Of a stretch of 64,000 nucleotides of DNA, positions 912 through 17,765 are shown piece after piece; the stretch's first letter is position 1, and each line of letters starts with the position of its first letter. Made by a program: the position numbers and the translations under genes. This DNA comes from Hoeflea sp. GTDB taxonomy: Bacteria > Pseudomonadota > Alphaproteobacteria > Rhizobiales > Rhizobiaceae. The notes beneath the pieces are model-generated. The model saw only the letters and a program-made list of their open reading frames with translations. It was not told the DNA's origin and searched no databases. The stretch is from the NCBI RefSeq assembly GCF_019084245.1, contig NZ_JAHRFE010000022.1; one strand, 5' to 3'.

Positions 912-974
912 AATCAGCGCACTCCTATGGGACGCTGCTACAAGCCGTCAGACGCCAAATGGTTCCGCGAAGGC

Positions 975-1613: not shown

Positions 1614-1671
1614 GGCGTTCTCCTTCTCGGCTAGCCAAGCTTAAGAACGCCTAAAACGCAAGGATGCGCCC

Positions 1672-2346: not shown

Positions 2347-2558
2347 TTTTTGAGCTTTCTGCTAATCAAGCGCGCGCCGGCTCCTGATATCTGCGTGCCC
2401 AAGATCAGCGCATTAAGCCCGACGACTGCACTTAGCGCCGTGTTGGTAAACAGGAAGCCGCCGATGGCGACGCTCAAGCTAACCAGTTCCGCGTTGGCAT
2501 AGGACGTCATTGCCAGCAGCAAGGCGCTGGCCAGGAATAGTTTATTGATCATTGGCAT
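2343..2558 (-). CDS. 71-aa hydrophobic peptide with basic C-terminus, resembling the N-terminus of phage tail-tip proteins
   Basis: GGAG RBS, signal-like N-terminus, coupled (GTGA) to the downstream gene. Confidence 0.5.
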   Translation of the reverse strand: MPMINKLFLASALLLAMTSYANAELVSLSVAIGGFLFTNTALSAVVGLNALILGTQISGAGARLISRKLKK

Positions 2559-2722
2559 GGTTCTCCATCGCGCGGCGCGTGCGGCCGGCGCGTGATTTGT
2601 CTTTTAGTGTGGTGGTTGGTGTGTGGGGTGGCGCCCATTGCAGAGTGCCGATTTTTGGTTGCGCGACAACCGATTGCATGTTTTAGTATATGTGCTTGTA
2701 TAATTAAGACGGGGCAAAACAC

Positions 2723-3025
2723 ATGACTGAAGATGCGATTGAAGATCCGCTTGCAGACTCTGTCGGGTCTGACGGGGTGCGAACTTGGCAGATATTTTTA
2801 CGGAATGGAGACAAGATTGAATTTCGCGCGGCGTGGAATACCAATCAACAATTTTCGCCGGGAGTCTTTGTGTCGCATGTTGCTACCTGTCATCGGACTG
2901 GCGGTCGACCCGATATTGGGATAAACGTAGTTTATACATTTCCGAAGACTAATAACTCTGACGTCGGAGCGATTCGACTGGCGATCGATGTTATAGAGGT
3001 CGCAGCCGTCGTTCAGATTCCGTAG
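2723..3025 (+). CDS. hypothetical protein (AT-richer moron)
   Basis: ORF with AT-rich upstream region containing TATAAT; opposite strand to the head operon. Confidence 0.5.
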   Translation: MTEDAIEDPLADSVGSDGVRTWQIFLRNGDKIEFRAAWNTNQQFSPGVFVSHVATCHRTGGRPDIGINVVYTFPKTNNSDVGAIRLAIDVIEVAAVVQIP

Positions 3026-3145
3026 GGTAGAGACTGCGGCGCTATGCGGCGGCGATTTTGCTGCCGGTTATAGACATTCACGAGACCGAGCGTAGTCTGA
3101 CCAACAAGGTAAGTCGGGGGGACCCAGTATTGCGTTCTTATTACA

Positions 3146-4051
3146 TTGTCTAAATGCGCTTGGATCATCGCAATTGCGCTTGGACTGAATATCTGCCTAG
3201 CAAATCTTGCACGCGCTCAGCCAGTAGACGAAAACGCCCGCGGCGGCGATCGTGCCACTGAACGCCAGCAACAACCAAGCGCAGACATCAATCCAGCACC
3301 TCCGCCGTCCATTCAGGACCTGCTCCAGCGCATTGCCGGCGCGCTGGAGGCTGGGAATGACAAGCCAGAGTCCGATGCCGAAAGGGAGCGCGCTAAGCGC
3401 GATCTTTCTGCTCAAGAAGCCATGGCCAAGTGGGCCAAATGGATGCTGATCGCCACCAGTGCTAGCGTCATCATTGGCGGCTTTAGCCTGTTTCTTATTT
3501 GGCGCACCGTAATTTACGCCAAACAAGCCGCCGTGGCCGCTCACGCTACGGTCAATGTCAGCAAAGAAATTGGCGTCGCGCAAACGCGCTCCTATATTTC
3601 CGTAATCGGAGGGGGGTTTATTCTCAATAAAGGTGGGTATTCCGGCTTCATTGACGTGAGCAATAGCGGACATTCCCCGGCGGTTAATCCGAAGATTGAG
3701 GTCACAATAAATCTGGCGGAGGCATGGTTCGGCGGCGCAACCATGGGGGCCAAACCGCCGCATCGCGATATCCAGCCTTTCGTTGGTAAGAAGGATAAAA
3801 TTCAACCCGGCGAAACCTCGCGTTTCTATTTCTTTTGGACAAAGGAACAAATCGCCGAAATTTTTGATCTCCTCAACCATGGCCGAAATACCGTTGTCCT
3901 CACCTGCAAGCTGAGTTCCGAAACCATCTATCCCAAGGTGGTTGATAAGGGGGCTTGGCAACTTACTAACTACCCCGGCTTCGTTAGGGTTACTGATGAA
4001 AGTCGTGTGGCTGAGGGAGTCTTGTACCCCCGCCAAAGCCAAAAGAAGTAA
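3146..4051 (+). CDS. predicted exported/membrane-anchored hypothetical protein (moron)
   Basis: signal-like N-terminus, internal TM segment WMLIATSASVIIGGFSLFLIW. Confidence 0.6.
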   Translation: MSKCAWIIAIALGLNICLANLARAQPVDENARGGDRATERQQQPSADINPAPPPSIQDLLQRIAGALEAGNDKPESDAERERAKRDLSAQEAMAKWAKWMLIATSASVIIGGFSLFLIWRTVIYAKQAAVAAHATVNVSKEIGVAQTRSYISVIGGGFILNKGGYSGFIDVSNSGHSPAVNPKIEVTINLAEAWFGGATMGAKPPHRDIQPFVGKKDKIQPGETSRFYFFWTKEQIAEIFDLLNHGRNTVVLTCKLSSETIYPKVVDKGAWQLTNYPGFVRVTDESRVAEGVLYPRQSQKK

Positions 4052-4135
4052 TGCGGCCCCCGCCGCGCGAAGTCTCATGGTTCCGGCCTACTCAGCGCTG
4101 GACAATTCATGGTGATTTCCTGTTTTAGAGCGCGG

Positions 4136-5791
4136 TTAGACCGCGAACATGCTCAAATCGCTCAGGTCCGCGTCCTCATATGAAGACCGGCCCGACGCGC
4201 CCTGCGCGGCCCGCCCTATCGAGATAATCGCCGCAACGGCCGGATCTATCTTGTCAATCGAGCGCTCTTTCAGCGGGCGCCTGTTGCCGCTGGCGTCGGT
4301 ATGCAGGACAACGTTTCCGATCGCCCAGCGCAGCATTGGATTGCCGCCATGGACTAGCCGGCGCTCGAACATGAGCGCCTCAAAGTCAATGACGGGCCGC
4401 GCGAAGGTGGCGATGTTTTGCGGAAACTCGGCAACCGGCAGGCCATCGTCCTCAAGGGATTTCATGATGTCCTGCGCATGCCACCTATCGAAGGCGATTT
4501 CCTCGACCTGAAACCGTTCGGCCAGGTCGCGGATATAGTCCTCGATCATGCCAAGATCGATCGTATCGCCGGGCGTCACAGTCAAGAACCCCTGATCGCG
4601 CCATAGGGCATAGGGGACGTTATCCGTTCGCCGGCGCACCGCACCCTCAGGACAAAAGGTCTGGACGTGCAACGCGTAGCTGTCATCGGCTAGCGGTACC
4701 GCCAACGATACGGCCGCCAAGTCGATGCGCTTGGCCAGGTCGACTCCGATCCATGCGCGCCGCCCCTCGATTGCGGTAAGGTCCAGTTCACCGGAGTTTT
4801 CATCCCAGACGTCTAACGACCATTCGGGGTTAGCCGCGCCATCAAGCCAGACATTCAAATGAAGTTGGCGGAACATTTCCCGATCCGCCGGCCTGTGTTC
4901 GGCTTCGCGCACCATCTGGCGCATGCCGTCGACGTCGGGATAAGGCGGATCGCACGAAAGGCCAGGGTTGACCCGATGCCAAACCGCCTCATCGCGCCAG
5001 TCTTCCTCGGGGTCAGCTTCGAACAGGATCGGGAGAAACGCATTGTCTTCGATCTGTCCGGTGGCGACCGCCTTGGCATATTTGTACATTTCATGGGCAA
5101 TGTTTTCGTGCCCGATTCCGGCCGTGGTGGTGACAACCAAAAGGCTGCCAGGCGTCTTAACAAGGCCGGTTTTGATGGCGTCCCAAAGATCGCGCTTTTT
5201 CCATGCGTGAAGTTCATCGACCAGCGCAAAAACCGGAGTGCGCCCATGAGCCGTTGCCGCGTCGGCTGACATCGCACGATAGAACGCGCCGGATCGCTTG
5301 TGTGCAATCCGGTTTTTCGTGTCTTGAACTTGAAAGGCTTCGGCCAGCCGCGGATGCGCGCCAATTACGCCTTTCATTTCCTCCAAGGCTATGCGCGCCT
5401 GATCGCGGTCAACCGCTGCGCTAACCACCTGCGAACCCGGAATCCGTTCCGGCCCCAAGTGCAGCATTGCCAGCGCGGCGCCCAGCGTGGTCTTGCGGTT
5501 GCCGCGTGGGATTAGTGCGAAAACGGTCTTGATCCGTCGCGTGCCGTCTGGCTTTGTGTCGCCATACACCTTGCGGAGAATGCGCTCCTGCCAGCGGTCC
5601 AATTGAAAGGCCCGCTTAGTGGCCGTGCTCTTTGGATGGCGCAACGCTTTTAGAAACTTGACGGCGCGTTCGCCTTTTCCGTGCGGATCAGGAATGATGG
5701 AGTCGTCAAAAACCCACGCGGGATAGGCAGAAACATTTCTGTCCGAAATGTTTCCTTCAGATATCGCCAAGGGCGTCGTCGTCATCGTCAC
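4136..5791 (-). CDS. terL: phage terminase large subunit (Terminase_1 type)
   Basis: Walker A-like PRGNRKTT, Walker B LVDELHAW, nuclease GVDLA and IDPAVA motifs. Confidence 0.95.
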   Translation of the reverse strand: MTMTTTPLAISEGNISDRNVSAYPAWVFDDSIIPDPHGKGERAVKFLKALRHPKSTATKRAFQLDRWQERILRKVYGDTKPDGTRRIKTVFALIPRGNRKTTLGAALAMLHLGPERIPGSQVVSAAVDRDQARIALEEMKGVIGAHPRLAEAFQVQDTKNRIAHKRSGAFYRAMSADAATAHGRTPVFALVDELHAWKKRDLWDAIKTGLVKTPGSLLVVTTTAGIGHENIAHEMYKYAKAVATGQIEDNAFLPILFEADPEEDWRDEAVWHRVNPGLSCDPPYPDVDGMRQMVREAEHRPADREMFRQLHLNVWLDGAANPEWSLDVWDENSGELDLTAIEGRRAWIGVDLAKRIDLAAVSLAVPLADDSYALHVQTFCPEGAVRRRTDNVPYALWRDQGFLTVTPGDTIDLGMIEDYIRDLAERFQVEEIAFDRWHAQDIMKSLEDDGLPVAEFPQNIATFARPVIDFEALMFERRLVHGGNPMLRWAIGNVVLHTDASGNRRPLKERSIDKIDPAVAAIISIGRAAQGASGRSSYEDADLSDLSMFAV

Positions 5792-6164
5792 CAGGCGCGC
5801 CCCCTTTGTTCTTTGTTCGGCTTGCAGGCGTCAGACCTAGCTCCGCGGCTAGCCGGCGGGCGGCCTCGATCGCCTCTTTAAGGATGGTTGTTTCAGGCCG
5901 GCGCTTAAGGTCGCCGCTTACCGAAACCATTGTCAGCCCTTCGGCTTGCAGGATCGCTTCGGCCTCCCGCTTGCGCGCAACGCAAAGGCAATAGTCCTCG
6001 ACCGTCCCCAATTCGTGCGCGGCAATTTTCCGATCGGCGACTAGCTGCGGAACCACGCGCGCCCATTCGGCGCGGCCGTGCGGTGGCAACCAACGCGGCG
6101 CCGGCGGCGCTTTTGATAGCGCCCCGTCAAGCGAGTTGATTTCCGGTTTCCTGCCCCTGGCCAT
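5757..6164 (-). CDS. terS: phage terminase small subunit (P27 family)
   Basis: MARGRKP start, PPAPRWL, LGLTPASR motifs. Confidence 0.9.
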   Translation of the reverse strand: MARGRKPEINSLDGALSKAPPAPRWLPPHGRAEWARVVPQLVADRKIAAHELGTVEDYCLCVARKREAEAILQAEGLTMVSVSGDLKRRPETTILKEAIEAARRLAAELGLTPASRTKNKGGAPGDDDDDALGDI

Positions 6165-6166
6165 GG

Positions 6167-6745
6167 CTATTCCCAATCGTAAGAGCGGAAATTGTCGAGC
6201 GTCGATTCCGCACCATGTGGAACGCTCATCATGGAAACATCCGAAACGGATTCGCGGTTCTCGAAATAGCTTGACGCGATCTGCAGGATCGCCTCACGAA
6301 TTGCCGCCGGCACGTCGGCCGCAGTGGCGCCATAGCCTGCGACATACCGAACGCGGACGGCATTTATCGTGGCCTTCGGCGTTGGCCACCCGCTTGCCGC
6401 TGGCGCAATCCAGCCCGGCACGCTGTATGTGTCGACCTCATAATCCGTGCCAGCGGTCAAGGTGACTTCAAGGCCGGTATCCGGTGCGACGTATTTGACG
6501 GACGTGACGGACTGCAGCCGCCCAGCGGGCAGCTTAAGAGGGCCGCGCGGGAACGTGTCTAGCACCAACTCGAACTCAGTCGATATGAACGGAAACCCTA
6601 GATAGCGCTCCGCATATTCGCGGGCCGCTGTGATCTTCTTCTCAATGCCAGCGTCTTCATCGGCGTATTCGATGCGCGCGTGACTCTTAAATTCAGCGAC
6701 CGTCACCGGCTCGACGGCCGGCGCGGTTATCGTGATGACAGCCAA
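6167..6745 (-). CDS. head-tail connector (gp6-like, long phiE125 gp8 type)
   Basis: EPVTVAEFKSHARI, VPAAIREAILQ...YFENRE motifs. Confidence 0.85.
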   Translation of the reverse strand: MAVITITAPAVEPVTVAEFKSHARIEYADEDAGIEKKITAAREYAERYLGFPFISTEFELVLDTFPRGPLKLPAGRLQSVTSVKYVAPDTGLEVTLTAGTDYEVDTYSVPGWIAPAASGWPTPKATINAVRVRYVAGYGATAADVPAAIREAILQIASSYFENRESVSDVSMMSVPHGAESTLDNFRSYDWE

Positions 6746-6764
6746 GGCGGCCTCCTAGGTTAAA

Positions 6765-6845
6765 ATTCCTATTTAGGATGAATACAGAACGTCTCTACCC
6801 CGCTGGTCCAGGCCAAACGGCGAGAAATTGACGACCGCCCCCCGG
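6765..6845 (-). other. probable cos/packaging region
   Basis: minus strand GGGGGGCGGTCGTCAATTT...GACCAGCGGGG...CCTAAATAGG, resembles sequences between HNH and terS of HK97-like phages (pattern inference). Confidence 0.45.
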
Positions 6846-6875
6846 TTGTGCGAAGCTTTGAGAATGGGAAACGAG

Positions 6876-7319
6876 ATGAAAGTATTTCTTCGTTTGGTTC
6901 TCGTGCTGTTCGCGAGCACGATAGCGAACGTGTCCCTGGCTTCGGACAAGGAATGTCTTTCTCCCCACACAAAATATGATGTGTGCAAAGCGGCTAGAGA
7001 GATCCAAGAATCGATGGCGCCAATGCTTCCCATGACAATGAATGCAAACATGACGTTGACTTCGGTGGCTGCTATTGGCCCTATATTTGCCTATTACGTT
7101 AGATGGACGCAAACATGGCCTGAGATCGAAGCTGCCATGCAAAACGCTGGCACGACAAAAGCCGCGCTTCTACAGATGATGGATGCACAAACAAACGCGA
7201 TTATTTGCGGGCAGGAAACTACTGCTGCATTCATCGGTCTCGGAGGAACGGTCCAGTACCACTACATCACATCTGATGCAGTCCCCGTCACCACTACAGT
7301 AGTGTCTTCGTGTCCCTGA
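6876..7319 (+). CDS. secreted protein, possibly PA3611/AspS pilotin-like fold (moron)
   Basis: signal peptide MKVFLRLVLVLFASTIANVSLA; LP...T..SV...G...Y; C...GG..QYHY...C pattern; lower GC. Confidence 0.55.
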   Translation: MKVFLRLVLVLFASTIANVSLASDKECLSPHTKYDVCKAAREIQESMAPMLPMTMNANMTLTSVAAIGPIFAYYVRWTQTWPEIEAAMQNAGTTKAALLQMMDAQTNAIICGQETTAAFIGLGGTVQYHYITSDAVPVTTTVVSSCP

Positions 7320-7324
7320 ATTAC

Positions 7325-7687
7325 TCAGCACTGTAGACGCCCGAACGCACCCTCACTCTTGATCGCCTTGCGCCTGTTGCACGTGTCGTGAAATGGCTGC
7401 CAATTCGATCGGCGCCAAAACAGTTTCATGTCGCCTTTCGGCGCCTCTATGTGATCCACCATGTTGGCAGCACGACCGCAGCCACAAGCGCATAGCGGGG
7501 TGCCAAGCGCTGCCAGCCATGCCTTGGACTCCTTGGCCCACTTGCCATCATAGCCGCGCTGTGCGGCGCTCCCACGCGCCAGGTCACTAGCCTTCTGGCG
7601 TGCCTCTGCATTGCGCTGCTGACAGTCGCATCGCGTGCCCTTCGGCACTGCATAGCCGCACGGACAAATGACATTCGGCATGTTCAA
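7325..7687 (-). CDS. HNH endonuclease (terminase-associated)
   Basis: RGYDGKW, CACGCG, VDHI, N...H..CN..K. Confidence 0.9.
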   Translation of the reverse strand: MNMPNVICPCGYAVPKGTRCDCQQRNAEARQKASDLARGSAAQRGYDGKWAKESKAWLAALGTPLCACGCGRAANMVDHIEAPKGDMKLFWRRSNWQPFHDTCNRRKAIKSEGAFGRLQC

Positions 7688-7876
7688 TTCCTCTTTATGA
7701 AAGGGGCGACCATCATCCCGATGGCCGCCCCAGTGCGGTTCGGCAGAACCGCTTTTGCGCGTCGGACATCACCCCGACACTTGGCCACCCATCAGCACGC
7801 TATGACCTTCAGAAGGTGGCGGCTCGTGCTGACAGTTAAGGATTGACCCAACCCCAAGGATACGCCGCCGGATTGG

Positions 7877-8263
7877 TTAGGATACAGGTCGCGAAGCGGC
7901 ATGGCCCTTGACCACGACGGCGCCGGCCGCAATGGACGTGCCGCTGTTCTTTGTGATCACGGTCCGGATATATCGTTTGTTGCCAATGTAAGACTGTTTG
8001 TAGACCGTGCTCGCCGCAAGGGCTGCAGGCAGCGTGCCGATCAAGTCGGCCGCGGCAACGTCGGCAAAGTCTTCCGACGTTGTGGTGTCGGATTCCTGCA
8101 GTTTCGCAGTGAAGTTGCCGCTGGATACGATGGCGCCGGTGTTGACGACTAGGGCAGCAGAGTCGAAGCCCTTAAGGTCGATGGCGGCGCTGGTGTCGGT
8201 TGCGGCAAGCACCTGCGGCACAACGGCCGCCACGACGCCAATATTATGCGAAAGATCGCGCAT
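7877..8263 (-). CDS. conserved head-associated protein following the capsid gene
   Basis: MRDLSHNI...IDLKGFDSA...KLQESDTT; near-identical motifs in the paralogue at 63707. Confidence 0.8.
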   Translation of the reverse strand: MRDLSHNIGVVAAVVPQVLAATDTSAAIDLKGFDSAALVVNTGAIVSSGNFTAKLQESDTTTSEDFADVAAADLIGTLPAALAASTVYKQSYIGNKRYIRTVITKNSGTSIAAGAVVVKGHAASRPVS

Positions 8264-8332
8264 GGGTATTCCTTTCAAAAGGGGAAGCGGGCCGCCGAAG
8301 CGGCCCTATAGGATGTTCCGTATGGAAACGGC

Positions 8333-9475
8333 TTACGATTCAGCAACGCGAAGCTTGCGCAGCGCCTCAGCCATGACCAGATCCGCACCAACGCGGCGAC
8401 GCGCATGGAACCGGACCTTTCCGGTGGTGGCCTGAGTGTAAGGATCTCGCAGCATCGACATCGCCACGCGGTCATAGACGCGGTAAGCGCGGTTGACGTC
8501 GCCGAACAGGATCGGAAATTCCCCGGCGCCGATGTCATCCATATCGACGGCTTCGACAATCGGGCGACCAAGCAGCGTTTCAGGCTGGCCAGCCTGATAG
8601 CTCGGCTGCCAAAGGTAATTGTTGGTTGTGTCCTTCAGCTTGCGAATTGCTGCAATGGTCGTGCCGTTGGCCATCCACACGCCCTTATTCCGGTAGTAGG
8701 CGGGTAGGTCATACATGAGCGTGATCAAGCTATCGGCGGTGATCAGCGTTGCGTGACCGCTCGCGACATCGGTAACGCCAGCCGCGGCCATTATGCCGGT
8801 TGGTTTTTTCACGCCATTGCCGGAAACTAGCGCAACACCTTCAAGCCGGCCGAATTCTTCCGCCAAATCGCTGGCCACTTCGGACTCGACGTTTACCGCG
8901 GCGTCTTCGAGGAGCTGCACAGAAACATCGACATAAGCCGCCATTTCGTGAACCGGAATTTCGACCTGGCCATAAGCGGATTCGGTTTCGGTGCGCGTCT
9001 CGGTTTCGCCAACCCAATTTGCGGTCGGCGTCCCGGTGCGCTTTGGCAGGATAACCGAACCCCGCGACGTGGAACCAACGCGGGCCGCCTGCCGGACAGG
9101 CGAGAATTCAACAATGCCCTTTAAGATTTCCGTGGAAAGCTCAGCGGGAGCCAGATAGCCGCCGCGGGTGTCATCGGCAACGACCAGCGATTTTACTTCG
9201 TCGGCTGGCATACGTTCGGCGCCATATCGCAGGAAGCCTTCAAAGGCTTTGCGCTCCGGTGTCGGCTCATTGTCATTGGCTGCCTTGCCGATGATAGCCG
9301 GCCGCGCCAGCTTCGTTTCAAGTTCGGCAATGCGACCGGCCAAGCCGTTGTCGTTGGCGGCCTTAGCCTTCACCTCAGCGACGGATTCGGCAAGCGCGGC
9401 AAGCGCGGCCTTGACCTCATCAACCGGGTTGTCAGTGGCGGATTTGGTTTCGAGTTTATGAGCAAGATTGCGCAT
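8333..9475 (-). CDS. major capsid protein, HK97 fold
   Basis: GGYLAP, WVGE, YLWQP, LLGRP, FGD motifs; N-terminal coiled delta domain containing two AANDN. Confidence 0.95.
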   Translation of the reverse strand: MRNLAHKLETKSATDNPVDEVKAALAALAESVAEVKAKAANDNGLAGRIAELETKLARPAIIGKAANDNEPTPERKAFEGFLRYGAERMPADEVKSLVVADDTRGGYLAPAELSTEILKGIVEFSPVRQAARVGSTSRGSVILPKRTGTPTANWVGETETRTETESAYGQVEIPVHEMAAYVDVSVQLLEDAAVNVESEVASDLAEEFGRLEGVALVSGNGVKKPTGIMAAAGVTDVASGHATLITADSLITLMYDLPAYYRNKGVWMANGTTIAAIRKLKDTTNNYLWQPSYQAGQPETLLGRPIVEAVDMDDIGAGEFPILFGDVNRAYRVYDRVAMSMLRDPYTQATTGKVRFHARRRVGADLVMAEALRKLRVAES

Positions 9476-10012
9476 CTAGATTCCCTTAATTGTCTGATTG
9501 GTTTTGTTGATCGCCGCGACCAATGCGGCGAAGTCCGTGCCGCTATTTTTGACGGACGTGACGGTCGCGGATTCGTTCATCGGAAACGTCACAATTGACG
9601 CCTCCCGAAGTTCGATTTCGTGGAGAAGGCGGGCGCCTTGTTTGCGGTCCATTTCGTCGCGGATTGTGCGGAATCCGATGGAGATTCCATCAACCGCCTC
9701 AGCCTTCATGAAGGCGTAAACCTCGCGGCCCTTGACTGTATCAAGGAGGATTCTGCCCTCGGCTCGCAGGCCAAAGGCGTCCTCTTCAAATTTGGTCCAT
9801 ACGCCAATCGGCTCCGTCGTGTCGTGCTGCCACAACATCTTGACCTTGCGCGCCGGGTACTTCTGCAGGCTGCTTTTGAACGCGCCAGGCATAACGATAT
9901 CGCCGCCGCGGTCTTTGACTCCGAACACACTGGCATAACCAGAGAACGTGCCGTCTTCTGCGATCGCCTTGATATCAAGCTCAATCGCGGCGCCCTGTGT
10001 GGTGGTGGTCAT
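9476..10012 (-). CDS. HK97-family prohead protease
   Basis: FSGYASVFG, MLWQHD, GISIGF, EASIVTFPMN. Confidence 0.95.
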   Translation of the reverse strand: MTTTTQGAAIELDIKAIAEDGTFSGYASVFGVKDRGGDIVMPGAFKSSLQKYPARKVKMLWQHDTTEPIGVWTKFEEDAFGLRAEGRILLDTVKGREVYAFMKAEAVDGISIGFRTIRDEMDRKQGARLLHEIELREASIVTFPMNESATVTSVKNSGTDFAALVAAINKTNQTIKGI

Positions 10013-11226
10013 GCCGCCGCCTCCGTTGTGGGTTGGTTGTCGTTGGCGGCCGATGGCGCCGTGTCGATCGCCGGATTTGCGAACACCTCGCCGCCGTCAC
10101 GTGGCGCCATGCCAAGCCAGTCGCGCGCTTCATTAGGATTGAGAACGCGCGCCGTGATCAATGTGCTGATAGCGGTTGCGCGTGCCGTTAGGTCGGCTTG
10201 GCTGGTGTCGTCGATGTCGAAGGCGAACCGAAGACCGGAGCGCCGCTCGGCTTCCGTCAGGAGCGCGCGATTGAACGCGCCTTCTAGAACGCGCAGCCAT
10301 GGGATAAGAGTGTATTGAATAAACTCTTTCGCCTGTTGCTCTGAGTTTCCCCAGGTGTTCCGCGTCAATTCGTACAGCATGCCAGGCGGAACCCGGAATG
10401 CCCGCGCGATTTCAAGGATCTGGAATGTTCGGCTAGCCGTAAACTCGCCGTCGACGGACGTAAGCGCCATCTGTTGATAGGTCGCGCCTTCATACAGGAC
10501 GGCCGTTTTGCCGGCGTTGGCCTTGCCGCTAAACGCGGCCTTCCAACCTGCCAACATGGCCTTGACGCCATCCGTACCTAGCTTGTTTGGCGTCTGAATA
10601 ACCCCGCCAGGTCGCGCGCCGTTTGTCCAAAGGCCATTGGCATAACCCTCCATAGCCGACGCCGTGGCGATGGCACTACGCGCCATTGTGAGGGGACATT
10701 TTGTAAACGGGCCGCGGACGTGAAGGATGTTCTTTGCCGATGCGAATTGCCCATTAATCCGATAGCGCGGCTCGCCTGTCTTGTCGTCATAATCAACGGC
10801 AATTATTCCGTCGCGGTAGATGATCAGTTCGCGCGGCTGGTCGTAGACCTTGGTTACATAGGCAATGCCGCCCTGGTCCTTCGTCAATGCGCCGGCGACC
10901 AGATCGCGGATAAGCTCAAAGCCCGATGTCCAGCCGTTCGCCTGTCCGGTAAGCAGCGCCAGCGCCGGGTGGTCGGATACGTCTTCCTCAGCGTCGCCAA
11001 CCTTGCGCTTTAGCTTGATGTCCAGGCTTGGCGCCGCCTCGGCAATGACGCGGACCGCAGCCGACACGGCAGGGACGGACAGCGCTTCCGCGTCGCTGAT
11101 TGTCGAGCCGGCAGGCACCGCGCCGAACAGTTCGAGAAGTTCGGCGGTTGGATCGCCAAGTGATTTTTGCTCGGCCACCACGGGCGGCGCCGCAACAGGC
11201 GTTTCTGATCTACTGAATGGCCACAT
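10009..11226 (-). CDS. HK97-family portal protein
   Basis: NGARPGG, EIARAFRVPP, TPNE-like LNPNEARDWLGM; ends AANDNQPTTEAAA. Confidence 0.95.
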   Translation of the reverse strand: MWPFSRSETPVAAPPVVAEQKSLGDPTAELLELFGAVPAGSTISDAEALSVPAVSAAVRVIAEAAPSLDIKLKRKVGDAEEDVSDHPALALLTGQANGWTSGFELIRDLVAGALTKDQGGIAYVTKVYDQPRELIIYRDGIIAVDYDDKTGEPRYRINGQFASAKNILHVRGPFTKCPLTMARSAIATASAMEGYANGLWTNGARPGGVIQTPNKLGTDGVKAMLAGWKAAFSGKANAGKTAVLYEGATYQQMALTSVDGEFTASRTFQILEIARAFRVPPGMLYELTRNTWGNSEQQAKEFIQYTLIPWLRVLEGAFNRALLTEAERRSGLRFAFDIDDTSQADLTARATAISTLITARVLNPNEARDWLGMAPRDGGEVFANPAIDTAPSAANDNQPTTEAAA

Positions 11227-11638
11227 CGGCAGCCTCCTTTACAATGGACTGCACAATGCTGCCGATTGGAATCACGATCGTCGAAACGTCGAATTTCAGC
11301 CTTGGCACGTCGCGGTCGGAAATGATGCGAGGCGAGCCGCATGCCCGCCTCATGACGGCCGGTGCGACTAGCAAGGCGTCTGCGGCCGGTGGCGTCCGCA
11401 GATTTTGAGCGGCGGCTGCGATAGCCATCAGCCATGAGCGGCCGGCTCGCTCCAGTTCAAAAGCAATGCGAAGCACTGCGACGTCTTGGATGCTAAACCA
11501 GCGCCTGCCCTTGCGCTTCTCCGAGAACAGGACGTCGAGGGTCCGATTGCGGCTGATGATGACGTCTAGATGTTTGCGTGAGAGGCCGACGATTCGCGCG
11601 GCCTCGGCGACTGTGAGGTCGCGCGTTGTCCAGGCCAT
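11210..11638 (-). CDS. MerR-like HTH protein at the head of the packaging operon
   Basis: LTVAEAARIVGLS...GRRWFSIQDV...ELERAG; GGAGG RBS. Confidence 0.7.
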   Translation of the reverse strand: MAWTTRDLTVAEAARIVGLSRKHLDVIISRNRTLDVLFSEKRKGRRWFSIQDVAVLRIAFELERAGRSWLMAIAAAAQNLRTPPAADALLVAPAVMRRACGSPRIISDRDVPRLKFDVSTIVIPIGSIVQSIVKEAADVAIQ

Positions 11639-11681
11639 TGGGCGGCCTCCTACGATGGTTAGAATTTCGAAAAGGCAAACA

Positions 11682-11729
11682 AAAAGCTGCGCCAGTGAAG
11701 CGTCTTGCGTTCAAACTGGCGCAGCTTTT
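11682..11729 (-). terminator. intrinsic terminator-like hairpin upstream of the head operon
   Basis: perfect 15-bp IR AAAAGCTGCGCCAGT / ACTGGCGCAGCTTTT followed on the minus strand by a U-rich run. Confidence 0.6.
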
Positions 11730-11867
11730 ACAACCTCGCACCGTTGCAGGACGCGCCGGCGCGGAGGCGATCAACCCACTGTGCGAAAGCGGGGATCAGT
11801 GAATTGATGGTGAGTAACCGCGCGCGGCCACCCACCGGCCGGCGCGGTGAAGCGCGCCGAAACAGAA

Positions 11868-11891
11868 AAAGGCCGCATCGCTGCGACCTTT
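11868..11891 (-). terminator. intrinsic terminator-like hairpin
   Basis: minus strand AAAGGTCGCA-GCGA-TGCGGCCTTT then TTCTGTTT; GNRA loop. Confidence 0.55.
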
Positions 11892-11934
11892 CCCATAAAT
11901 ACCCTTTGGCGTGCTGAAATGGGGTACCCCAACC

Positions 11935-12654
11935 CTATGCGGCCCTAACCCCGCGCCAATATCGATCAACGATTTCGAAGCCGTCAAATATGCGTGCCCG
12001 CGCCTCGCCCTTGGCGCCCTTCACGCCGGCGCCCAGCAGTTTGCCGATTTCTTCAAGGGTGAGTCCATCAAGAACAGACCATTCAAACGCGGCTAGTATT
12101 TTCGGAACAAAGCCCAGCCTTGCGCGGAGGTAGGCCAAGTCCCGTCCCGCATCGATTGCGGCCAGCAAAGGCCAGTCGCCATTCCATGCCTTGGGCACTG
12201 GCTTGGCGTTCTGGCGCGGGGCGATTGCCACGTTTGCCTTCCGTCCCTCCACCTGTTTCACACCCTTGTCGCGGCCGCTCTCGTCCTGATCGCGCAGGAG
12301 GTAAAGGTCATCAAGCGCCTGGCCTTTCAGTTCGGGCAGATGCGCCATGTCGCTCAACTCTCGATAGCTCTCCGCAAGGCGGAGACAGTAGGCGTTGCCT
12401 TCAGTCTTAAGAAGCTTGGCTAGAGGCCAATCCTGATTATCGTTCGCGGCCTGGCCGCTGTACTTGCTTGATCCGATGCGCGCCGCCTGCGAGGCCAGCC
12501 GCCATTCTAGTGTAGGTCCATCCTCGATCGCCTTGCCGCGGGCTGCGGGCTTTGTCCGCGGTGGTGTCCAGTCATTGGCCGGTTCAATGATTTTCTGCAG
12601 CGTATGTCGGCGATCGAAAACCGCCGGGTCCTTCAAATCCATGTCTTCACCCAT
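11935..12654 (-). CDS. putative late transcription regulator with C-terminal sigma-70 region-4-like HTH
   Basis: DGLTLEEIGKLLG HTH; position between replication and head genes; start 12654 or 12642 uncertain. Confidence 0.55.
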   Translation of the reverse strand: MGEDMDLKDPAVFDRRHTLQKIIEPANDWTPPRTKPAARGKAIEDGPTLEWRLASQAARIGSSKYSGQAANDNQDWPLAKLLKTEGNAYCLRLAESYRELSDMAHLPELKGQALDDLYLLRDQDESGRDKGVKQVEGRKANVAIAPRQNAKPVPKAWNGDWPLLAAIDAGRDLAYLRARLGFVPKILAAFEWSVLDGLTLEEIGKLLGAGVKGAKGEARARIFDGFEIVDRYWRGVRAA

Positions 12655-12870
12655 GGTTAGTGTGTCGTCGTACCGGACAGGCCGGCGGCTAGTGGGTGGC
12701 TGCATAAAAGGAAATAGTAATTTCGCTGAATTTCCGCCACTATATTTATGCGGCCAGCTCAACTAAAAGCGGCGCATATCCGAAATTCGTCAAGTCCTGC
12801 TGTCCAGCTTCTTGCAAACATCAAGAAGCTCATCCCCGCTACGGACCGCTTCACCACTTATCAGCCTCTA

Positions 12871-13002
12871 CACGTTACACGCGTTACATACACATACACT
12901 ACATGTATGTGTATGTAACGCTGTGGTGTAACGCTTGCAGGCTATGATGTGGCCGCGTGACAAGGCGTTACAATTGTAGTGTTATGTAACGCTCTGTAAC
13001 GC
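12871..13002. other. putative replication origin: 18-bp palindrome plus CGTTACA/TGTAACG repeats
   Basis: GCGTTACATACACATACA (12881-12898) / TGTATGTGTATGTAACGC (12904-12921); further (G)CGTTACA or TGTAACGC copies nearby. Confidence 0.65.
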
Positions 13003-14079
13003 TGGTCTAAGATCAAATTTCCCATCAATCTCGATTAAAAATTCATCTGTCAAAGCGGCCCTCTGCCTTGAAAACCTTTGTCTTTTCGTGCCGTCCTTTA
13101 TATCGCCAGCCGCTTCATAGACCGCGGCCCGCCACTGATCTTCAGTCACAGGCGCATTGTCGTTGGCGGCAATGGCGGCCCGTAGAACCGCAGTCGCCTC
13201 GCCAATCGCGCGGCTAGCCTTTTGTAGCGGTTTTGTCACGCTCGGCGGTGCGCAGGGCACAAGAACCGGCGCCGTGGTGGCAATGCCATCGTGCTCGGCG
13301 AGCGTGACCGTTTCCATTCGATAGGTGCGGATCGGCCTGTCTGCCGACTCGTTGTTCTTCATCACTTGAGCCGTTGAAACGTCCCGCTTGCGGGTGATGA
13401 GGATAGACATATCGGCAGCCGCCTGTAGTTGCCCGCCGCCGCGCATGCGCTTCTCTCCGCTCACTGGCGTGTGGTGCACCACGACCACGGTGCAGCCGAA
13501 CGTTTGGCCGTCATGAAAATTTCCGCACCGCGTCGCGTCCGTCAGATTAAACACGGCACGCGCCATCCCGTCGGGGCTGGAATCGCTTACACTCATCGCC
13601 GCCGCCAGGGTGTCAATAACGACAACTTCAATGCTGTCATCCAACATCAGGTTGGCGGTTCGCAAAATCGCGCGCAGGGCATACGGCTCGGCTAAATCAA
13701 TCGGTCCGTCATAAACCAATACGTTGTCAAACGGCTCGCCGTCGTGGTGTTTGATGAACGCATCAATGCGCCGCTCAACCTGGCCCGCGCGTTCGGCCGC
13801 GATGTAAAGCACGTTTGACCGATACGGCAACGTGCCGCCGTCAAAGTCCAGACCAGCCGCAAGCCGGCATGTAACGTCAACAGCAAAAACGGACTTTCCA
13901 GCCTCAGAGGGTCCGTAAATCACAAGCAAGTCATTAGTCGCAACCCAGCCAGGCATGCGCCAATACTTACGAATATCGCGGCCTTCGCGGTTGTGGATCT
14001 TCAAATTGCTGGATATTTCAGAATACAAATTTTGATCTGTATCAAAATCTGACCAGTCAACACTTGACAAATTTGTCAT
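12982..14079 (-). CDS. RepA-type (AAA_25, RecA-like) replicative helicase
   Basis: Walker A GPSEAGKS, Walker B VVIDTL, VVVHH, RGGGQL; no N-terminal primase domain evident. Confidence 0.85.
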   Translation of the reverse strand: MTNLSSVDWSDFDTDQNLYSEISSNLKIHNREGRDIRKYWRMPGWVATNDLLVIYGPSEAGKSVFAVDVTCRLAAGLDFDGGTLPYRSNVLYIAAERAGQVERRIDAFIKHHDGEPFDNVLVYDGPIDLAEPYALRAILRTANLMLDDSIEVVVIDTLAAAMSVSDSSPDGMARAVFNLTDATRCGNFHDGQTFGCTVVVVHHTPVSGEKRMRGGGQLQAAADMSILITRKRDVSTAQVMKNNESADRPIRTYRMETVTLAEHDGIATTAPVLVPCAPPSVTKPLQKASRAIGEATAVLRAAIAANDNAPVTEDQWRAAVYEAAGDIKDGTKRQRFSRQRAALTDEFLIEIDGKFDLRPALQSVT

Positions 14080-14150
14080 AATGCCCTATTCTCCTTTATG
14101 TGTAATTGAACAATTTGCCCGCCCTGATTTTTCAGTGGCGGGCTTTTTTT
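14064..14150 (+). ncRNA. predicted promoter plus ~50-nt counter-transcribed RNA upstream of the helicase gene
   Basis: TTGACA (14064-69)-N17-TATTCT (14087-92); hairpin 14117-14143 followed by T7 on the plus strand only. Confidence 0.55.
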
Positions 14151-14152
14151 GG

Positions 14153-14353
14153 TTAGTCGATAGTGTCTTCCGCTTCCCTGGCTGCGAACTCGGCCATATC
14201 TTTCCGCTTCGCCGGATCCTCGATCCGGATCATTCCTTGAATAACCATAAGCGAGGCAGCCCCGTCAGATGGAAGGCCCACGGCCATCAACTGGCTGATC
14301 GCATCCTCAATAATTTCGCGGGCCTTCTGATTCTTGTAGTCGCCGACCTTCAT
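14153..14353 (-). CDS. small hypothetical protein
   Basis: ATG overlaps the alpA TGA (ATGA); MKVGDYKNQKAREII... Confidence 0.65.
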   Translation of the reverse strand: MKVGDYKNQKAREIIEDAISQLMAVGLPSDGAASLMVIQGMIRIEDPAKRKDMAEFAAREAEDTID

Positions 14354-14562
14354 GCTGCAGCCCTCGCCTGTACCTTTGTCCTTATCCACGCCATCACCTC
14401 AGAGCGAACAAACGCCACTCGCCTGTCGCCAAGCTCTACGGCGATCGGGAATCTGCCTTCGGCGCGGTAGCGGTTGAGCATCGTGCGCGACATGCTGGTC
14501 ATGCGGCAGGCGTCGTTCAACGAAACCAGCGTTGGTTCATTATCGTTCGCGGCTTTTTCCAA
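14350..14562 (-). CDS. alpA: AlpA-family regulator/excisionase
   Basis: AAGGAA RBS plus TTG; SLNDACRMTSMSRTMLNRY...FP.....G.RRVAF..SEV..WI. Confidence 0.88.
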   Translation of the reverse strand: MEKAANDNEPTLVSLNDACRMTSMSRTMLNRYRAEGRFPIAVELGDRRVAFVRSEVMAWIRTKVQARAAA

Positions 14563-14710
14563 TTTAATTTCCTTCCGGGGTTGACAGGTTTGCAGGAAAT
14601 GGTAGATTGACATCAGTGCTTCAATTGGGCTATCTGTTGATTGCTTACATCAGAGATGCCAGTCTGAAATCTAGTTGCATCTTACAAAAATGTCAACATG
14701 GCCGCTTTGG

Positions 14711-15886
14711 CTATTGGCAGTAGTCTGCCCATTCGCCCATCAGAGCGCGCCGCCGCTCCAAAGCATCCGACCGGGCGTAAGACCTTTCAACCGCATCGCC
14801 AACCGCATGACAGAGCGCCGCTTCTGCTATTTCGCGGGGCGCATGCGCGACTTCGGTTGCCCAATCGCGGAAGGTCGATCGGAACCCGTGAACCGTATAG
14901 GCGGCCGCCCCTGCCGATTTCAGCGCCTTTGCCAAGCTCATATCGGAAAGCGGCTTTCCGGCGCGCACGCCGGGGAAAACAAGATCGTTTACTGATTGCG
15001 CTTTCATAACCTTTAGCACCGCCAAGGCCGCGCCTGACAGCGGCACGCGATGCGGCTTGCCTCCCTTCATCCTTATGGCCGGAATCGTCCAGACGGCCGA
15101 CTCTATGTCAATCTCCCCCCATGTCGCGCCTCGGGCTTCCCCACTGCGCGCCGCCGTCAATATGGTGAACTCCAGCGCCCGCGCCCCGACGCCCTTGATC
15201 TTTGCCAGCGACCGCATGAAGGTCGCCACATCTTCATGCGGCATAGATGCGTGATGACGGGCCGCGACAAGCGCGTTCGGCTTGTGCAGCACATGCTCAA
15301 GATTGCCCTTCCACGCGGCTGGATTGTCGCCGGTTCGGTGTCCATCGACGCGGCTCGCGTCCAGAACGCGCTCAATCGATTCCCGCAACTTTTCGGCGGT
15401 TTCCTGCTTCACACCCCAAAGCGGTTCCAAGACCTTTTTGATGTCCTGAATGTCAATGTCGCCGATCGGCCGCCCGCGTATCGCAGCGGCATGGTTATTG
15501 ATTGCGTTCCGCCATCGCGCCTCGGTTTTCGCGCCGCGCCATTTGCCAGCCTTGACGGCGCGGTCAATGAACTTGTCGGCATAGGCTCCAAACAGGACCA
15601 CGGCAGGCGTAGAAGCCTCGACTTCGCGCTTGTCGCGAATCGGATCGACTCCGGCCCGCACCATTGCACGCGCCTTCTGTGCCGCTTCCCGCGCATCTGC
15701 CAGACTAACAGAATGAAGCGGGCCTATGCCCATTTCACGCCGTCTGCCAAACAAGGTGTAGTTGAAGATCCAGTACCGGCCGGTGCCCTTTGTGACCAGC
15801 CACAGACCACCACCATCACGCAGCTTGAGCGCCTTGCTTGCCGCGATTCCTTTGACCGTCAGGACGTTTTTTGTATGGCTCCCCAT
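14711..15886 (-). CDS. int: P4-family tyrosine integrase
   Basis: arm-binding N-terminus DGGGLWL...REMGIG; catalytic TAARSGE, HGFR, RSY. Confidence 0.95.
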   Translation of the reverse strand: MGSHTKNVLTVKGIAASKALKLRDGGGLWLVTKGTGRYWIFNYTLFGRRREMGIGPLHSVSLADAREAAQKARAMVRAGVDPIRDKREVEASTPAVVLFGAYADKFIDRAVKAGKWRGAKTEARWRNAINNHAAAIRGRPIGDIDIQDIKKVLEPLWGVKQETAEKLRESIERVLDASRVDGHRTGDNPAAWKGNLEHVLHKPNALVAARHHASMPHEDVATFMRSLAKIKGVGARALEFTILTAARSGEARGATWGEIDIESAVWTIPAIRMKGGKPHRVPLSGAALAVLKVMKAQSVNDLVFPGVRAGKPLSDMSLAKALKSAGAAAYTVHGFRSTFRDWATEVAHAPREIAEAALCHAVGDAVERSYARSDALERRRALMGEWADYCQ

Positions 15887-15890
15887 CGTC

Positions 15891-15911
15891 TTTCCCCGCT
15901 TTTTCCCCGCT
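15891..15911. repeat. tandem TTTCCCCGCT direct repeat, possible integrase arm site
   Basis: two 10-bp copies between the int start and att. Confidence 0.35.
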
Positions 15912-16027
15912 ATTGGGTATAGGGATTATGTAGTTGTTACGGACAAAATGGGCAAGCCAAATCGAGATAAATAAACGTTATCAATCAGTAAGTTATCGGC
16001 TTGGTTACAATGGATATTATCAAATAC

Positions 16028-16043
16028 CCGGCCCGGGGAGCCA
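16028..16043 (+). other. att junction: 3' end of a tRNA (probably tRNA-Asn)
   Basis: CCGGCCCGGGGAGCCA, CCA-ending T-arm/acceptor fragment as recalled for rhizobial tRNA-Asn; no 5' half present. Confidence 0.6.
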
Positions 16044-16224
16044 AATTTCCTTTCTTACGTCTGGCGCCGCGCCCACACCCCTCGCCGGAGTTGTTCGGTT
16101 GGGTCAAGTGTTGCGGCTGTCGGCGAAAAAAGCGCTGTTGCGGGCGTTTTAATCCGCGGTCTCGTTTCGGCGCGCTCCCATATCCCCAACGTCTCGGAAC
16201 TTCAGCGTTTTTTCGCAAAACTTC

Positions 16225-16250
16225 TGATCCGCTTTTTCCGTCCACCCGTA
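16225..16250 (+). promoter_or_regulatory. RpoE (ChrR-partnered ECF) promoter
   Basis: TGATCC-N15-CCGTA versus Rhodobacter sigmaE consensus TGATCC-N15-GCGTA. Confidence 0.7.
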
Positions 16251-16304
16251 TGACGCAATCAAAAGGCTCGGCGACTTTCGCCCAAACGGAAAAAATGTAT
16301 CGGG

Positions 16305-17765
16305 ATGGCACGCGACACCACATTTGACACGGACGCAGCAATCGTCTGGTTCCGCAATGATTTGCGGGTCAGCGACAACGCCGCGTTGATGGCCGCAAGC
16401 GCGCACAGCGCCGTTGTTCCTGTCTTCATCCGTGAAACCAATTCCCCTGCCCGGCCGCTCGGCGCCGCGCGGACCTGGTGGCTGCACCATTCGCTCCTGC
16501 GGCTTGGCCAGAAGCTCGAAAGCCTCGGCGCGCCGCTGCTTCTGCTAAGCGGTGATCCTGCCCAAATCCTGCCGGACCTGGTCAAGGCCAGCGGCGCGTC
16601 AGCGGTCTACTGGAACCGGCGTTATGATCCGTCGCACAAGGAAGCCGATGCGGCGCTCAAGGCCGAGCTTCAGGCCGACGGGCTGCGTGCCGAAAGCTTC
16701 GCCGGCCAGTTGCTGCACGAACCGTTGCGGCTCCAGACCGGCGGCGGGACCTACTACAAGGTCTACAGCCCGTTCTGGCGGGCGATGGAGCCCGATATCG
16801 AAAAGCGCCCGCCCCTGCCCGCACCGCAGTCGCTCACGCCGCTGTCGTCGGCTCGAGAGCTTGCGTCCGAAGAGCTGGCGAGCTGGAAACTGCTGCCCGT
16901 CAACCCTGACTGGTCCGGCGGCTTGAGCGACGCCTGGACGCCAGGCGAAGACGGCGCCCAGGCGCGGCTCACCGATTTTCTCGAAAACAGGATGCAGGGC
17001 TATGCCGAGCGCCGCGACATTCCCGGCATGGACGCGACCTCGGGGCTGTCGCCGCATCTGGCGAGCGGCGAGATTACGCCAGCGCAGATCATCGACGCGC
17101 TCGGCAATGCCGACTCGGACGCCTCCTCATCCGACCGGAGCAAATTCCGCAAGGAAGTCGGCTGGCGCGAATTCTCCTGGCACCTGCTCGCCAATGAACC
17201 CGGCCTGGCGGACCGCAATCACAATTCCCGGTTCGATGCGTTTCCCTGGATCAACAATGAGAAGACGCTTCATGCCTGGCAGAAGGGCCTCACCGGATAC
17301 CCGATTGTCGACGCAGGCATGCGCGAACTCTGGCGCACCGGCTGGATGCACAACCGCGTCCGCATGGTCGCCGCCTCGTTCCTGACCAAGCATCTGATGA
17401 TCGACTGGCGCCAGGGAGAGGCCTGGTTCTGGGACACGCTCGTGGATGCCGACCCGGCCTCCAATGCCGCAAGTTGGCAATGGGTGGCGGGCTCCGGCGC
17501 GGACGCCGCCCCCTATTTCAGGATCTTCAACCCGATCCTGCAGGGCGAAAAATTCGACCCCGACGGCGACTATGTCCGCAAGAACGTGCCGGAACTGGCT
17601 GAAATGCCTGCCAAATATATCCACAAGCCATGGGAGGCGCCAGACAGCGTGCTTGAAGCCGCAGGCGTCCGCCTTGGCGAAACCTATCCCGAGCCTATTG
17701 TAGACCATCAGGCAGCGCGCCAGCGTGCGCTCGCCGCATACCAGCAGATCAAGGATGCCGCATGA
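16305..17765 (+). CDS. phrB: class I deoxyribodipyrimidine photolyase
   Basis: WFRNDLRV.DN.AL, SGLSPHL..GEI, WREF, TGYPIVDAGMRELW.TGWMHNR.RM. Confidence 0.95.
   Translation: MARDTTFDTDAAIVWFRNDLRVSDNAALMAASAHSAVVPVFIRETNSPARPLGAARTWWLHHSLLRLGQKLESLGAPLLLLSGDPAQILPDLVKASGASAVYWNRRYDPSHKEADAALKAELQADGLRAESFAGQLLHEPLRLQTGGGTYYKVYSPFWRAMEPDIEKRPPLPAPQSLTPLSSARELASEELASWKLLPVNPDWSGGLSDAWTPGEDGAQARLTDFLENRMQGYAERRDIPGMDATSGLSPHLASGEITPAQIIDALGNADSDASSSDRSKFRKEVGWREFSWHLLANEPGLADRNHNSRFDAFPWINNEKTLHAWQKGLTGYPIVDAGMRELWRTGWMHNRVRMVAASFLTKHLMIDWRQGEAWFWDTLVDADPASNAASWQWVAGSGADAAPYFRIFNPILQGEKFDPDGDYVRKNVPELAEMPAKYIHKPWEAPDSVLEAAGVRLGETYPEPIVDHQAARQRALAAYQQIKDAA

Follow-up and report, generated by a model that had tools for sequence, protein, structure and literature searches.

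Within a 64,000-nucleotide stretch of a Hoeflea sp. contig (NZ_JAHRFE010000022.1, assembly GCF_019084245.1), hereafter the window, we analyzed a phage satellite, element 1, in which the pentapeptide AANDN recurs in unrelated proteins and matches the start of the alpha-proteobacterial SsrA tag. Pfam and PHROG annotation recovers on the minus strand a set of early genes (a tyrosine integrase, alpA, a small open reading frame [ORF], an AAA_25 primase/helicase-like protein, orf275 and a MerR-like helix-turn-helix [HTH] protein), the head genes (portal, S78 prohead protease and HK97-type capsid) and further a phrog_5707 protein, a Cys-rich ORF, a gp6-like connector, terS and terL (Table 1). The Cys-rich ORF, labelled HNH in an earlier, sequence-only reading of this DNA, has no Pfam match. 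No tail or lysis genes were found by this annotation of the element 1 core. Such a gene set without tail or lysis functions, at ~10-17 kb, characterizes phage-inducible chromosomal islands that form capsids (cf-PICIs), which are mobilised by a helper phage providing tails alone. Because element 1 shares it, and because the nearest portals in the cultured-phage collection (~31% identity) lie on the 15-16.5 kb vB_KppS-Ant and Pmp8, we classify element 1, judged from its genes alone, as a cf-PICI-like satellite.

A six-frame search of the window found exactly six copies of AANDN, all on the minus strand and each in frame with a long ORF, at the very positions that the sequence-only reading had reported. 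The shorter core, ANDN, is confined to the same six places. Five mutually unrelated proteins carry the copies: the capsid, which has two, the portal, orf275, the AAA_25 protein and AlpA; all of their genes except orf275 are identified by Pfam (4/5). The six copies differ from one another solely at third codon positions, and the 45 nucleotides (nt) on either side of each show no mutual similarity. From the composition of element 1 itself, 0.0039 copies would be expected in its 3436 residues, close to the back-of-envelope estimate of ~0.004 made earlier, and 2000 within-protein residue shuffles never produced more than one AANDN, or more than three copies of any pentapeptide. The AANDN set of element 1 is real and far beyond chance.

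Table 1. Coordinates of the motif copies, of the genes that carry them and of the two satellite elements in the window (aa, amino acids).
Feature	Position	Strand	Remarks
Satellite element 1, core	4136-15886	-	Pfam and PHROG; independent gene calls agree
HK97-type major capsid gene	8333-9475	-	Pfam
Prohead serine protease gene (S78)	9476-10012	-	Pfam; without motif
Portal gene	10009-11226	-	Pfam PF04860
orf275	11935-12705	-	Probable 256-aa form; longer ORF 11935-12762
AAA_25 replication protein gene, 365 aa	12982-14079	-	Pfam PF13481; PHROG matches to primase/helicase families
alpA	14350-14613	-	Pfam PF05930; likely start TTG 14562, 70 aa
AANDN, capsid copy 1	9347-9361	-	Residue 39; context EVKAKAANDNGLAGRIAELETK
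AANDN, capsid copy 2	9269-9283	-	Residue 65; context ARPAIIGKAANDNEPTPERKAF
AANDN, portal copy	10036-10050	-	Residue 393
AANDN, orf275 copy	12436-12450	-	Residue 105 (ORF 11935-12762)
AANDN, AAA_25 copy	13156-13170	-	Residue 304; context LRAAIAANDNAPVTEDQWR
AANDN, AlpA copy	14539-14553	-	Residue 21 (87-aa form), residue 4 (70-aa form)
Portal C-terminal tail	10012-10050	-	AANDNQPTTEAAA-COOH, 13 residues; full-length SsrA-tag look-alike
Element 2, cf-PICI-like	53573-64000	+	
Element 2 integrase	53573-54763	+	
Element 2 portal	60809-61999	+	
Element 2 protease	61996-62502	+	
Element 2 capsid	62504-63682	+	

Two near matches put forward in the sequence-only reading, PANDW (12568-12582) and AANDG (380-394), are present in the DNA but do not hold as copies: at the first, the pattern conserved across 120 homologues is [DE]W.P.R and not AND-x, and the second sits in a cargo ORF of opposite orientation. 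Another near match, KAANDD (3470-3481, minus strand), lies in the first cargo ORF downstream of terL (3197-4078) and has the same K-A-A-N-D start as the capsid copies. It may be a seventh, degenerate copy; gene callers conflict on the coding strand in this region, where a plus-strand ORF (3146-4051) overlaps. Two pairs of copies are identical in DNA over 15-16 nt (9347-9362 with 10036-10051, and 12436-12450 with 14539-14553), for which preferred codons could be the cause, or recent copying between sites may be. An inserted mini-element or DNA repeat was ruled out, as the flanks are unrelated and a repeat finder recovers the 15-16-nt motif alone.

We further investigated whether related elements keep the motif, a check that had been suggested from the sequence alone. 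Portal scans returned five genome loci and 14 viral-contig loci. Every locus with a portal at least 54% identical to that of element 1 carries two to seven ANDN, and every locus at 51% identity or below carries none; the motif-bearing loci include Rhizobium leguminosarum CC278f and Phyllobacterium sp. SB3. Over 11 non-redundant elements of this clade, ANDN occurs 42 times (29 of them as AANDN) in 39,803 residues against 0.27 expected, an enrichment of ~150-fold. The flanks of the same elements hold two ANDN in 13,593 residues, and the distant elements none in 21,264. Within the window, there is no ANDN in the 11,980 residues of the host genes, nor in element 2, which has the same architecture as element 1, is more distant (42% portal identity) and provides an internal negative control from the same genome; the absence noted earlier from both host genes and element 2 is borne out. 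The sequence-only reading had inferred tag mimics in the proteins of element 1; the feature belongs to a whole clade of Rhizobiales satellites and not to element 1 alone.

Selection on these sites acts on the peptide. Across 50 motif instances (the window element plus 11 loci), all four Ala codons and both Asn and both Asp codons are used. Matches to the DNA pattern GCNAAYGAYAAY number 53 on the gene strand, where 50 share the frame of a called ORF, and zero on the other. Since every synonymous codon is used and no match lies on the opposite strand, the constraint is on the peptide, which extends to the whole clade the conclusion previously drawn from codon variation among the window copies. 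The working consensus reads [A]-A-N-D-N-x-P, with A at -1 in 70% and P two residues past NDN in 42% of instances; the conserved core is NDN, with A favoured before it and P favoured two residues after. ANDN accounts for 50 copies in clade proteins, and each other ANDx, ANDE and ANDD included, for three at most. In two gamma-proteobacterial cf-PICIs, ANDE, ANDD and ANDN are all absent, as are Ala-Ala (AA) ends, and this rules out the motif as a general cf-PICI property.

The motif sites are orthologous across relatives, namely the N-terminal arm of AlpA, the linkers of the replicases, the portal tail and two sites in the capsid delta domain. They show the hallmarks of a short linear motif, a class of 3-10 residues: exposed or disordered segments, conserved columns, varying flanks and recurrence in five unrelated families. 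The Pfam capsid domain begins at residue 105, and both capsid copies are upstream of it, within the N-terminal delta (scaffold) domain. The first stands in a coiled-coil column, K-AANDN-IAALTKRLE, that is kept in relatives (as ADNDN in loci L001 and L007), and the second in the column ARPAI.GK-AANDN-EP..E.KAF, which is kept in L007, L008, L009 and L012 and has decayed in L001, L010, L011 and L014. Most clade members keep the capsid columns, some in decayed form (ADNDN, KADNEPT), and distant elements are unrelated there. The head genes vary in arrangement: protease and capsid are separate genes in the window, L001, L007 and L014, and S78 protease and capsid are fused into one ORF of 507-554 aa in L002, L004, L008-L013 and L015, where the first AANDN comes directly behind the protease part.

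At the portal, ~70 of the 80 closest homologues, which come from Rhizobium, Mesorhizobium and Phyllobacterium, have (P/A)ANDN in their last 32 residues, beyond the portal domain. In the AAA_25 protein, the Pfam domain covers residues 27-208 and the motif lies between the ATPase domain and the C-terminal region. Homologues keep ANDN at the same column at 91, 50 and 49% identity, have DNDN at 43% and lose it further out; other clade members encode a different replicase, of 545-614 aa, with the motif in a Pro/Ala-rich linker.

The two putative regulators show the strictest columns. ANDN stands at one column in 102/120 homologues of orf275, within the block SGQ[A/H]ANDNxDWPLAKLLRTE, where N88, D89 and N90 are each at least 90% conserved; these homologues come from Rhizobium, Sinorhizobium/Ensifer, Agrobacterium, Shinella, Mesorhizobium, Aurantimonas, Chelativorans and Amorphus. 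An AlphaFold model of the 256-aa form has two confident helical regions, and its predicted local distance difference test score (pLDDT) falls to 50 at residues 81-90, with better-modelled stretches on either side. The protein has no Pfam or PHROG match and is widespread in Rhizobiales without a family assignment. Its best Foldseek matches are extracytoplasmic function (ECF) sigma factors and sigma region 4, all of them weak (E >= 0.29); with the fold match treated as a hint, orf275 may encode the satellite's own sigma-like late activator. AlpA homologues are mostly 68-72 aa long and start M-x(1-4)-[A/S/D/H..]-N-D-N-x-P. In an alignment of 52 homologues N6 never varies, and conservation is 90% or higher at D7, N8 and P10, on a par with the HTH core. 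Because the homologues have this length and begin M-x(1-4)-[A]NDN, the 70-aa form of AlpA is likely the true gene product; it starts MEKAANDNEP... and ends ...KVQARAAA. In its AlphaFold2 model, residues 1-10 form a free arm (pLDDT 59) and the winged HTH fold begins at residue 12. The motif sites are predicted to be accessible in the AlpA arm, in orf275, in the portal tail and in the delta domain.

The SsrA tag is added co-translationally from transfer-messenger RNA (tmRNA), and its leading Ala comes from the charged tmRNA, so that tagged proteins read AANDN. That alpha-proteobacterial and rhizobial tags start with ANDN, as the sequence-only reading had stated, agrees with the published tags of Caulobacter, AANDNFAEEFAVAA (PMC9393093), and of Agrobacterium tumefaciens, a member of the Rhizobiaceae, ANDNNAKEYALAA (PMC12493166, Table 1); a literature search for rhizobial tags found the A. 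tumefaciens tag alone. All six copies reproduce exactly the (A)ANDN start of the alpha form, sharing its first five residues, with N as the fourth residue of the tag and not the gamma-type E/D. They are not added from tmRNA, as all lie inside ordinary genes. The portal copy, like that of most portal homologues, has the other features of a tag, a position at the extreme C-terminus, a length of ~12-14 residues and an (L/V)AA end, which the five internal copies do not. ARAGORN and Rfam searches of the window were negative for tRNA, for tmRNA and for every other RNA family, and the 19 related loci gave no tmRNA either, which rules out a tmRNA or integration-site explanation of the motif. A scan of viral contigs found many tmRNA genes with ANDN... 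tags, none assignable to Rhizobium or Hoeflea; some of these genes are permuted, and their native tags have an x-P-V/A-T pattern like that of the motif here (ANDNQPVTALRLAA, ANDNSPATALRLAA).

The AA end is the part of the tag that ClpX reads. Two features of the same proteins had been overlooked in the sequence-only reading, their AA ends and the portal tail as a full-length tag look-alike. The orf275 protein ends ...RGVRAA, and 109/120 of its homologues end in AA. Its stop codon, TAG, precedes 297 nt of DNA without a gene, so gene overlap leaves this end unexplained; orf275 has what is expected of a ClpX Ala-Ala-COOH degron, a family-wide AA end with no overlap to cause it. AlpA ends in AA in 99/120 homologues and in A in 116/120, and its penultimate residue is A, S or T in 114/120, for which gene overlap gives no account. 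The AA end lies 58 residues from the motif in AlpA and 166 in orf275. Over the clade elements, 26/188 proteins end in AA against 2.9 expected, compared with 0/51 flank proteins and 5/104 proteins of distant elements; some proteins of relatives end in KELAA.

Whole tags are also encoded at C-termini. Most tails of the closest portal homologues end in AA, in the form (A)ANDN-x(4-9)-AA, and 30/36 of the portal tails with this ending, measured from A(NDN), are 11-13 residues long, just like native tags. In some AlpAs the C-terminus is a complete encoded tag, AANDNARAQVAA, with variants ...AANDN(A/Q/T)RAQ(V/A)AA, and small proteins of relatives end in ANDNLRAAMKKSAA, ANDNQRIAARAAA or ANDNLMAAINKYAA. 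Four AlpA homologues (P0248, P0249, P0251 and P0341) have both an N-terminal ANDN and a complete C-terminal tag, ...ARGAANDNARAQVAA, and their ends look like a whole SsrA tag added onto the usual ...ARAA end. When viral contigs were scanned for the pattern ANDN-x(5-9)-AA-stop, ~40 long ORFs (80-767 aa) that end in this way were recovered along with true tmRNA genes. Tag-like ends appear to be a theme wider than the satellite clade. Long ORFs with such tails on unrelated viral contigs (L025-L104) include one of 561 aa ending ...RVEAALALIANDNKQEASIAA and one of 528 aa ending ...KVKVPPANDNKQTVAATKAA.

At the sequence level, the SsrA-tag mimicry under peptide selection that had been proposed is supported by orthologous sites in related elements and by hundreds of homologues. 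Recruitment or titration of SspB-ClpXP, remodelling of proheads and a decoy role, which the same reading had suggested, are candidate functions. We consider it probable that AANDN is a conserved short linear motif copying the adaptor-binding N-terminal part of the alpha-type SsrA tag, and the explanation that we favour, with similar confidence, is a dispersed SsrA-tag mimic that would route satellite proteins to SspB-ClpXP. Host SspB-alpha would bind the exposed ANDN peptides and tether satellite proteins to ClpXP, and the AA-ended AlpA, the sigma-like regulator and free portal would then be quickly degraded. Such degradation would keep the excision and switch proteins short-lived and would clear unassembled head parts such as the portal. 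In the prohead, the portal tail and the delta domain would face inwards, hidden or removed by the S78 protease, so that only assembled head protein would escape degradation.

A more speculative extension, which we regard as unlikely at present, is that the load on host trans-translation serves as the satellite's induction signal, protease competition acting as a sensor of infection. AlpA, the sigma-like regulator, the replicase and the portal would compete with genuine SsrA-tagged proteins for SspB-ClpXP. Helper infection would bring ribosome stalling and mRNA damage, and the resulting flood of SsrA-tagged proteins would saturate the protease queue. The saturated queue would stabilise the satellite proteins together, and released delta-domain peptides would reinforce the block.

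Several points weigh against SspB-ClpXP routing. Neither a tmRNA gene nor sspB is in the window, and the putative reading of AANDN by SspB-alpha is carried over by analogy from the E. coli paradigm, as reviews summarise it. As the sequence-only reading had cautioned for residue 6, the residue after NDN is not the aromatic residue or Asn of the native tags given above; moreover, Pro at +2 replaces the native Ala. The copies in the capsid (both), orf275 and the AAA_25 protein lie 60-340 residues from the C-terminus, and since neither the capsid nor the AAA_25 protein ends in AA, tethering would not by itself lead to their degradation. The orf275 copy adjoins an invariant block (..DWPLAKLL..) and may also be structural at that site. 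The AA ends themselves have a partial explanation in two of the genes. The alpA stop overlaps the ATG of the next gene (GCATGA), and the Shine-Dalgarno sequence GAGG encodes 'AR'; likewise, the portal stop overlaps the ATG of the coupled protease gene (GCATGA), and both this and GGAGG, which gives 'E', lie within the last five portal codons. These overlaps account in part for the AA ends, that is, for the terminal A and some of the preceding residues. This weakens the AA argument for portal and AlpA and leaves orf275 unaffected.

Among the other explanations, two accept selection on the peptide and assign it a different role. The motif could be a decoy, in which abundant late proteins titrate SspB and the delta domain, with two copies per subunit, is released as peptides after maturation; the effect would be slower turnover of SsrA-tagged or SspB-dependent substrates, or stabilisation of the satellite's own tagged regulators as a feed-forward step. 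The most abundant protein does carry two copies in the part cut away by the prohead protease, the capsid and AAA_25 proteins would not be deliverable as substrates without an AA end, and one phage encodes an SspB homologue, which shows phage interference at this node (PMC5587285). However, conservation of the motif is strictest in AlpA and orf275, regulators of low abundance for which titration would serve little purpose, the delta-domain copies are those most often lost among relatives, and the C-terminal AA that accompanies the motif in the same proteins marks a substrate and not an inhibitor, which makes the decoy a rather improbable account. We also doubt, to at least the same degree, that some partner which the satellite or its helper encodes uses the motif for docking or cleavage, with a coincidental likeness to SsrA, for instance a capsid-targeting or prohead-protease recognition peptide comparable to the T4 capsid-targeting sequence or to encapsulin cargo peptides. 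Such a signal would suit the 3/6 copies in parts of the prohead interior (two in the delta domain, one in the portal tail), next to an S78 protease gene, and the limitation of the motif to one element clade is what co-evolution with an element-encoded partner predicts. It would leave unexplained why AlpA, the replicases and the regulator keep the motif so strictly, as well as the conserved C-terminal AA, the native length of the portal tail and the alpha-type ANDN specificity, and a five-of-five match to the host tag is very unlikely by chance. Because the early regions of the motif-bearing elements are mosaic, no candidate partner gene is common to all of them.

The remaining two explanations dispense with a function of the peptide, and both are essentially excluded. 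A signal at the DNA or RNA level that is translated by accident (a protein-binding site, a packaging signal or a regulatory element) would agree with the two copy pairs that are identical over 15-16 nt. It has very little left to recommend it given that variation is restricted to synonymous third positions with all Ala, Asn and Asp codons in use, that 50/53 DNA matches are in frame and none lies on the other strand or is demonstrably intergenic, that the flanks of the copies are dissimilar and that the window has no Rfam match. Chance, or the composition of Ala/Asn/Asp-rich linkers, could invoke alanine as the commonest residue of element 1 (13.9%) and the linker-like nature of the sites; against an expectation of 0.004 copies, 0/2000 shuffles with more than one copy, the ~150-fold enrichment over 11 relatives and the lack of any copy in ~12,000 host residues of the window, it is hardly conceivable.

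Control of mobile-element proteins by host proteases through degron mimicry is already known, and the present case is not categorically new in this respect. Phage switch proteins subject to regulated proteolysis include lambda CII, O and Xis, the Mu repressor, and the mycobacteriophage repressor and integrase. To our knowledge, every such case concerns one protein with its own degron. A close parallel is the integration-dependent immunity of mycobacteriophages such as BPs, whose repressor and integrase have genome-encoded, C-terminal ssrA-like tags (PMC9262239). Common to both is that the switch proteins of a mobile element themselves carry ssrA-like degrons, putative ones in the satellite, through which host proteases set their levels; in BPs, however, these are -LAA-type C-terminal ends on two proteins, without the adaptor-binding part, internal motifs or structural proteins, and the actinobacterial host lacks SspB. 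A split arrangement is seen in E. coli RseA(1-108), reported to be a natural non-SsrA substrate delivered by SspB to ClpXP (Flynn et al. 2004). RseA resembles the satellite proteins in its genome-encoded split tag, an internal SspB-binding peptide plus a separate C-terminal ...VAA degron, and differs in that the peptide is unlike the SsrA sequence and that a single host protein is concerned, with no element-wide reuse. Relative to the SsrA tag itself, the portal tail and some AlpA ends share the native length (11-13) and the terminal Ala-Ala, whereas the satellite motif is gene-encoded and not trans-translated, most copies are internal and far from the C-terminus, the middle of the satellite tag is rich in Pro, Thr, Glu and Lys, and the two halves often stand apart, one at an internal site and the other at the C-terminus.

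Regulators of the CtrA type in alpha-proteobacteria have C-terminal Ala-Ala ClpXP degrons, and CtrA is delivered via the CpdR/RcdA/PopA adaptors. A family-conserved AA end on the regulators is common to CtrA and the satellites (orf275 109/120, AlpA 99/120), but CtrA is not known to carry ANDN. The N-terminal Prp cleavage motif of the host's ribosomal protein L27 is also present in the capsid and scaffold proteins of Staphylococcus phage 80-alpha. Phage head proteins that copy a short host processing motif for a host enzyme are a theme shared with 80-alpha, which differs in that its motif is the cleavage site of a dedicated cysteine protease, is known from structural proteins only and is not known to involve a degradation adaptor. 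With the cf-PICIs, compared here by genes alone, element 1 has gene set and size in common; the two gamma-proteobacterial examples are motif-free, and the motif system is specific to the Rhizobiales clade. Our literature search found no account of a mobile element that reuses the tag's adaptor-binding half throughout its proteome, and none of portal tails resembling SsrA.

Here, between five and seven unrelated proteins of the same mobile element share a single, putative host-derived adaptor motif, which persists across genera (Rhizobium, Mesorhizobium, Sinorhizobium, Agrobacterium, Shinella, Phyllobacterium and Hoeflea-like). If the predicted binding to SspB is true, this would be the first natural case in which an element mimics, in proteins throughout, the half of the SsrA tag that the adaptor binds, with natural 'split tags' that parallel engineered SspB-dependent degrons, and it would offer a testable link between trans-translation or ClpXP capacity and both satellite induction and head assembly. 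Motif peptides such as EKAANDNEPTL, GKAANDNEPTP and PSAANDNQPTTEAAA are ready-made probes of SspB-alpha recognition, and the motif provides a sequence signature for locating this satellite clade.

The closest named relatives of element 1 proteins are from Rhizobium and Hoeflea. No convincing attachment (att) repeats bounding element 1 were found within 1-16400, and its far end may lie outside the window. Element 2 runs off the end of the window within an orf133-like gene. In one relative of element 1 (L010, 10139-13574), terL is split into pieces of 364 and 209 aa by an inserted 415-aa ORF, which could be a mobile insertion. The cargo of the satellite comprises several ORFs without any family and a gene for an SOS-response-associated peptidase (SRAP, PF02586; 975-1613, minus strand), the product of which ends ...MVDAA.

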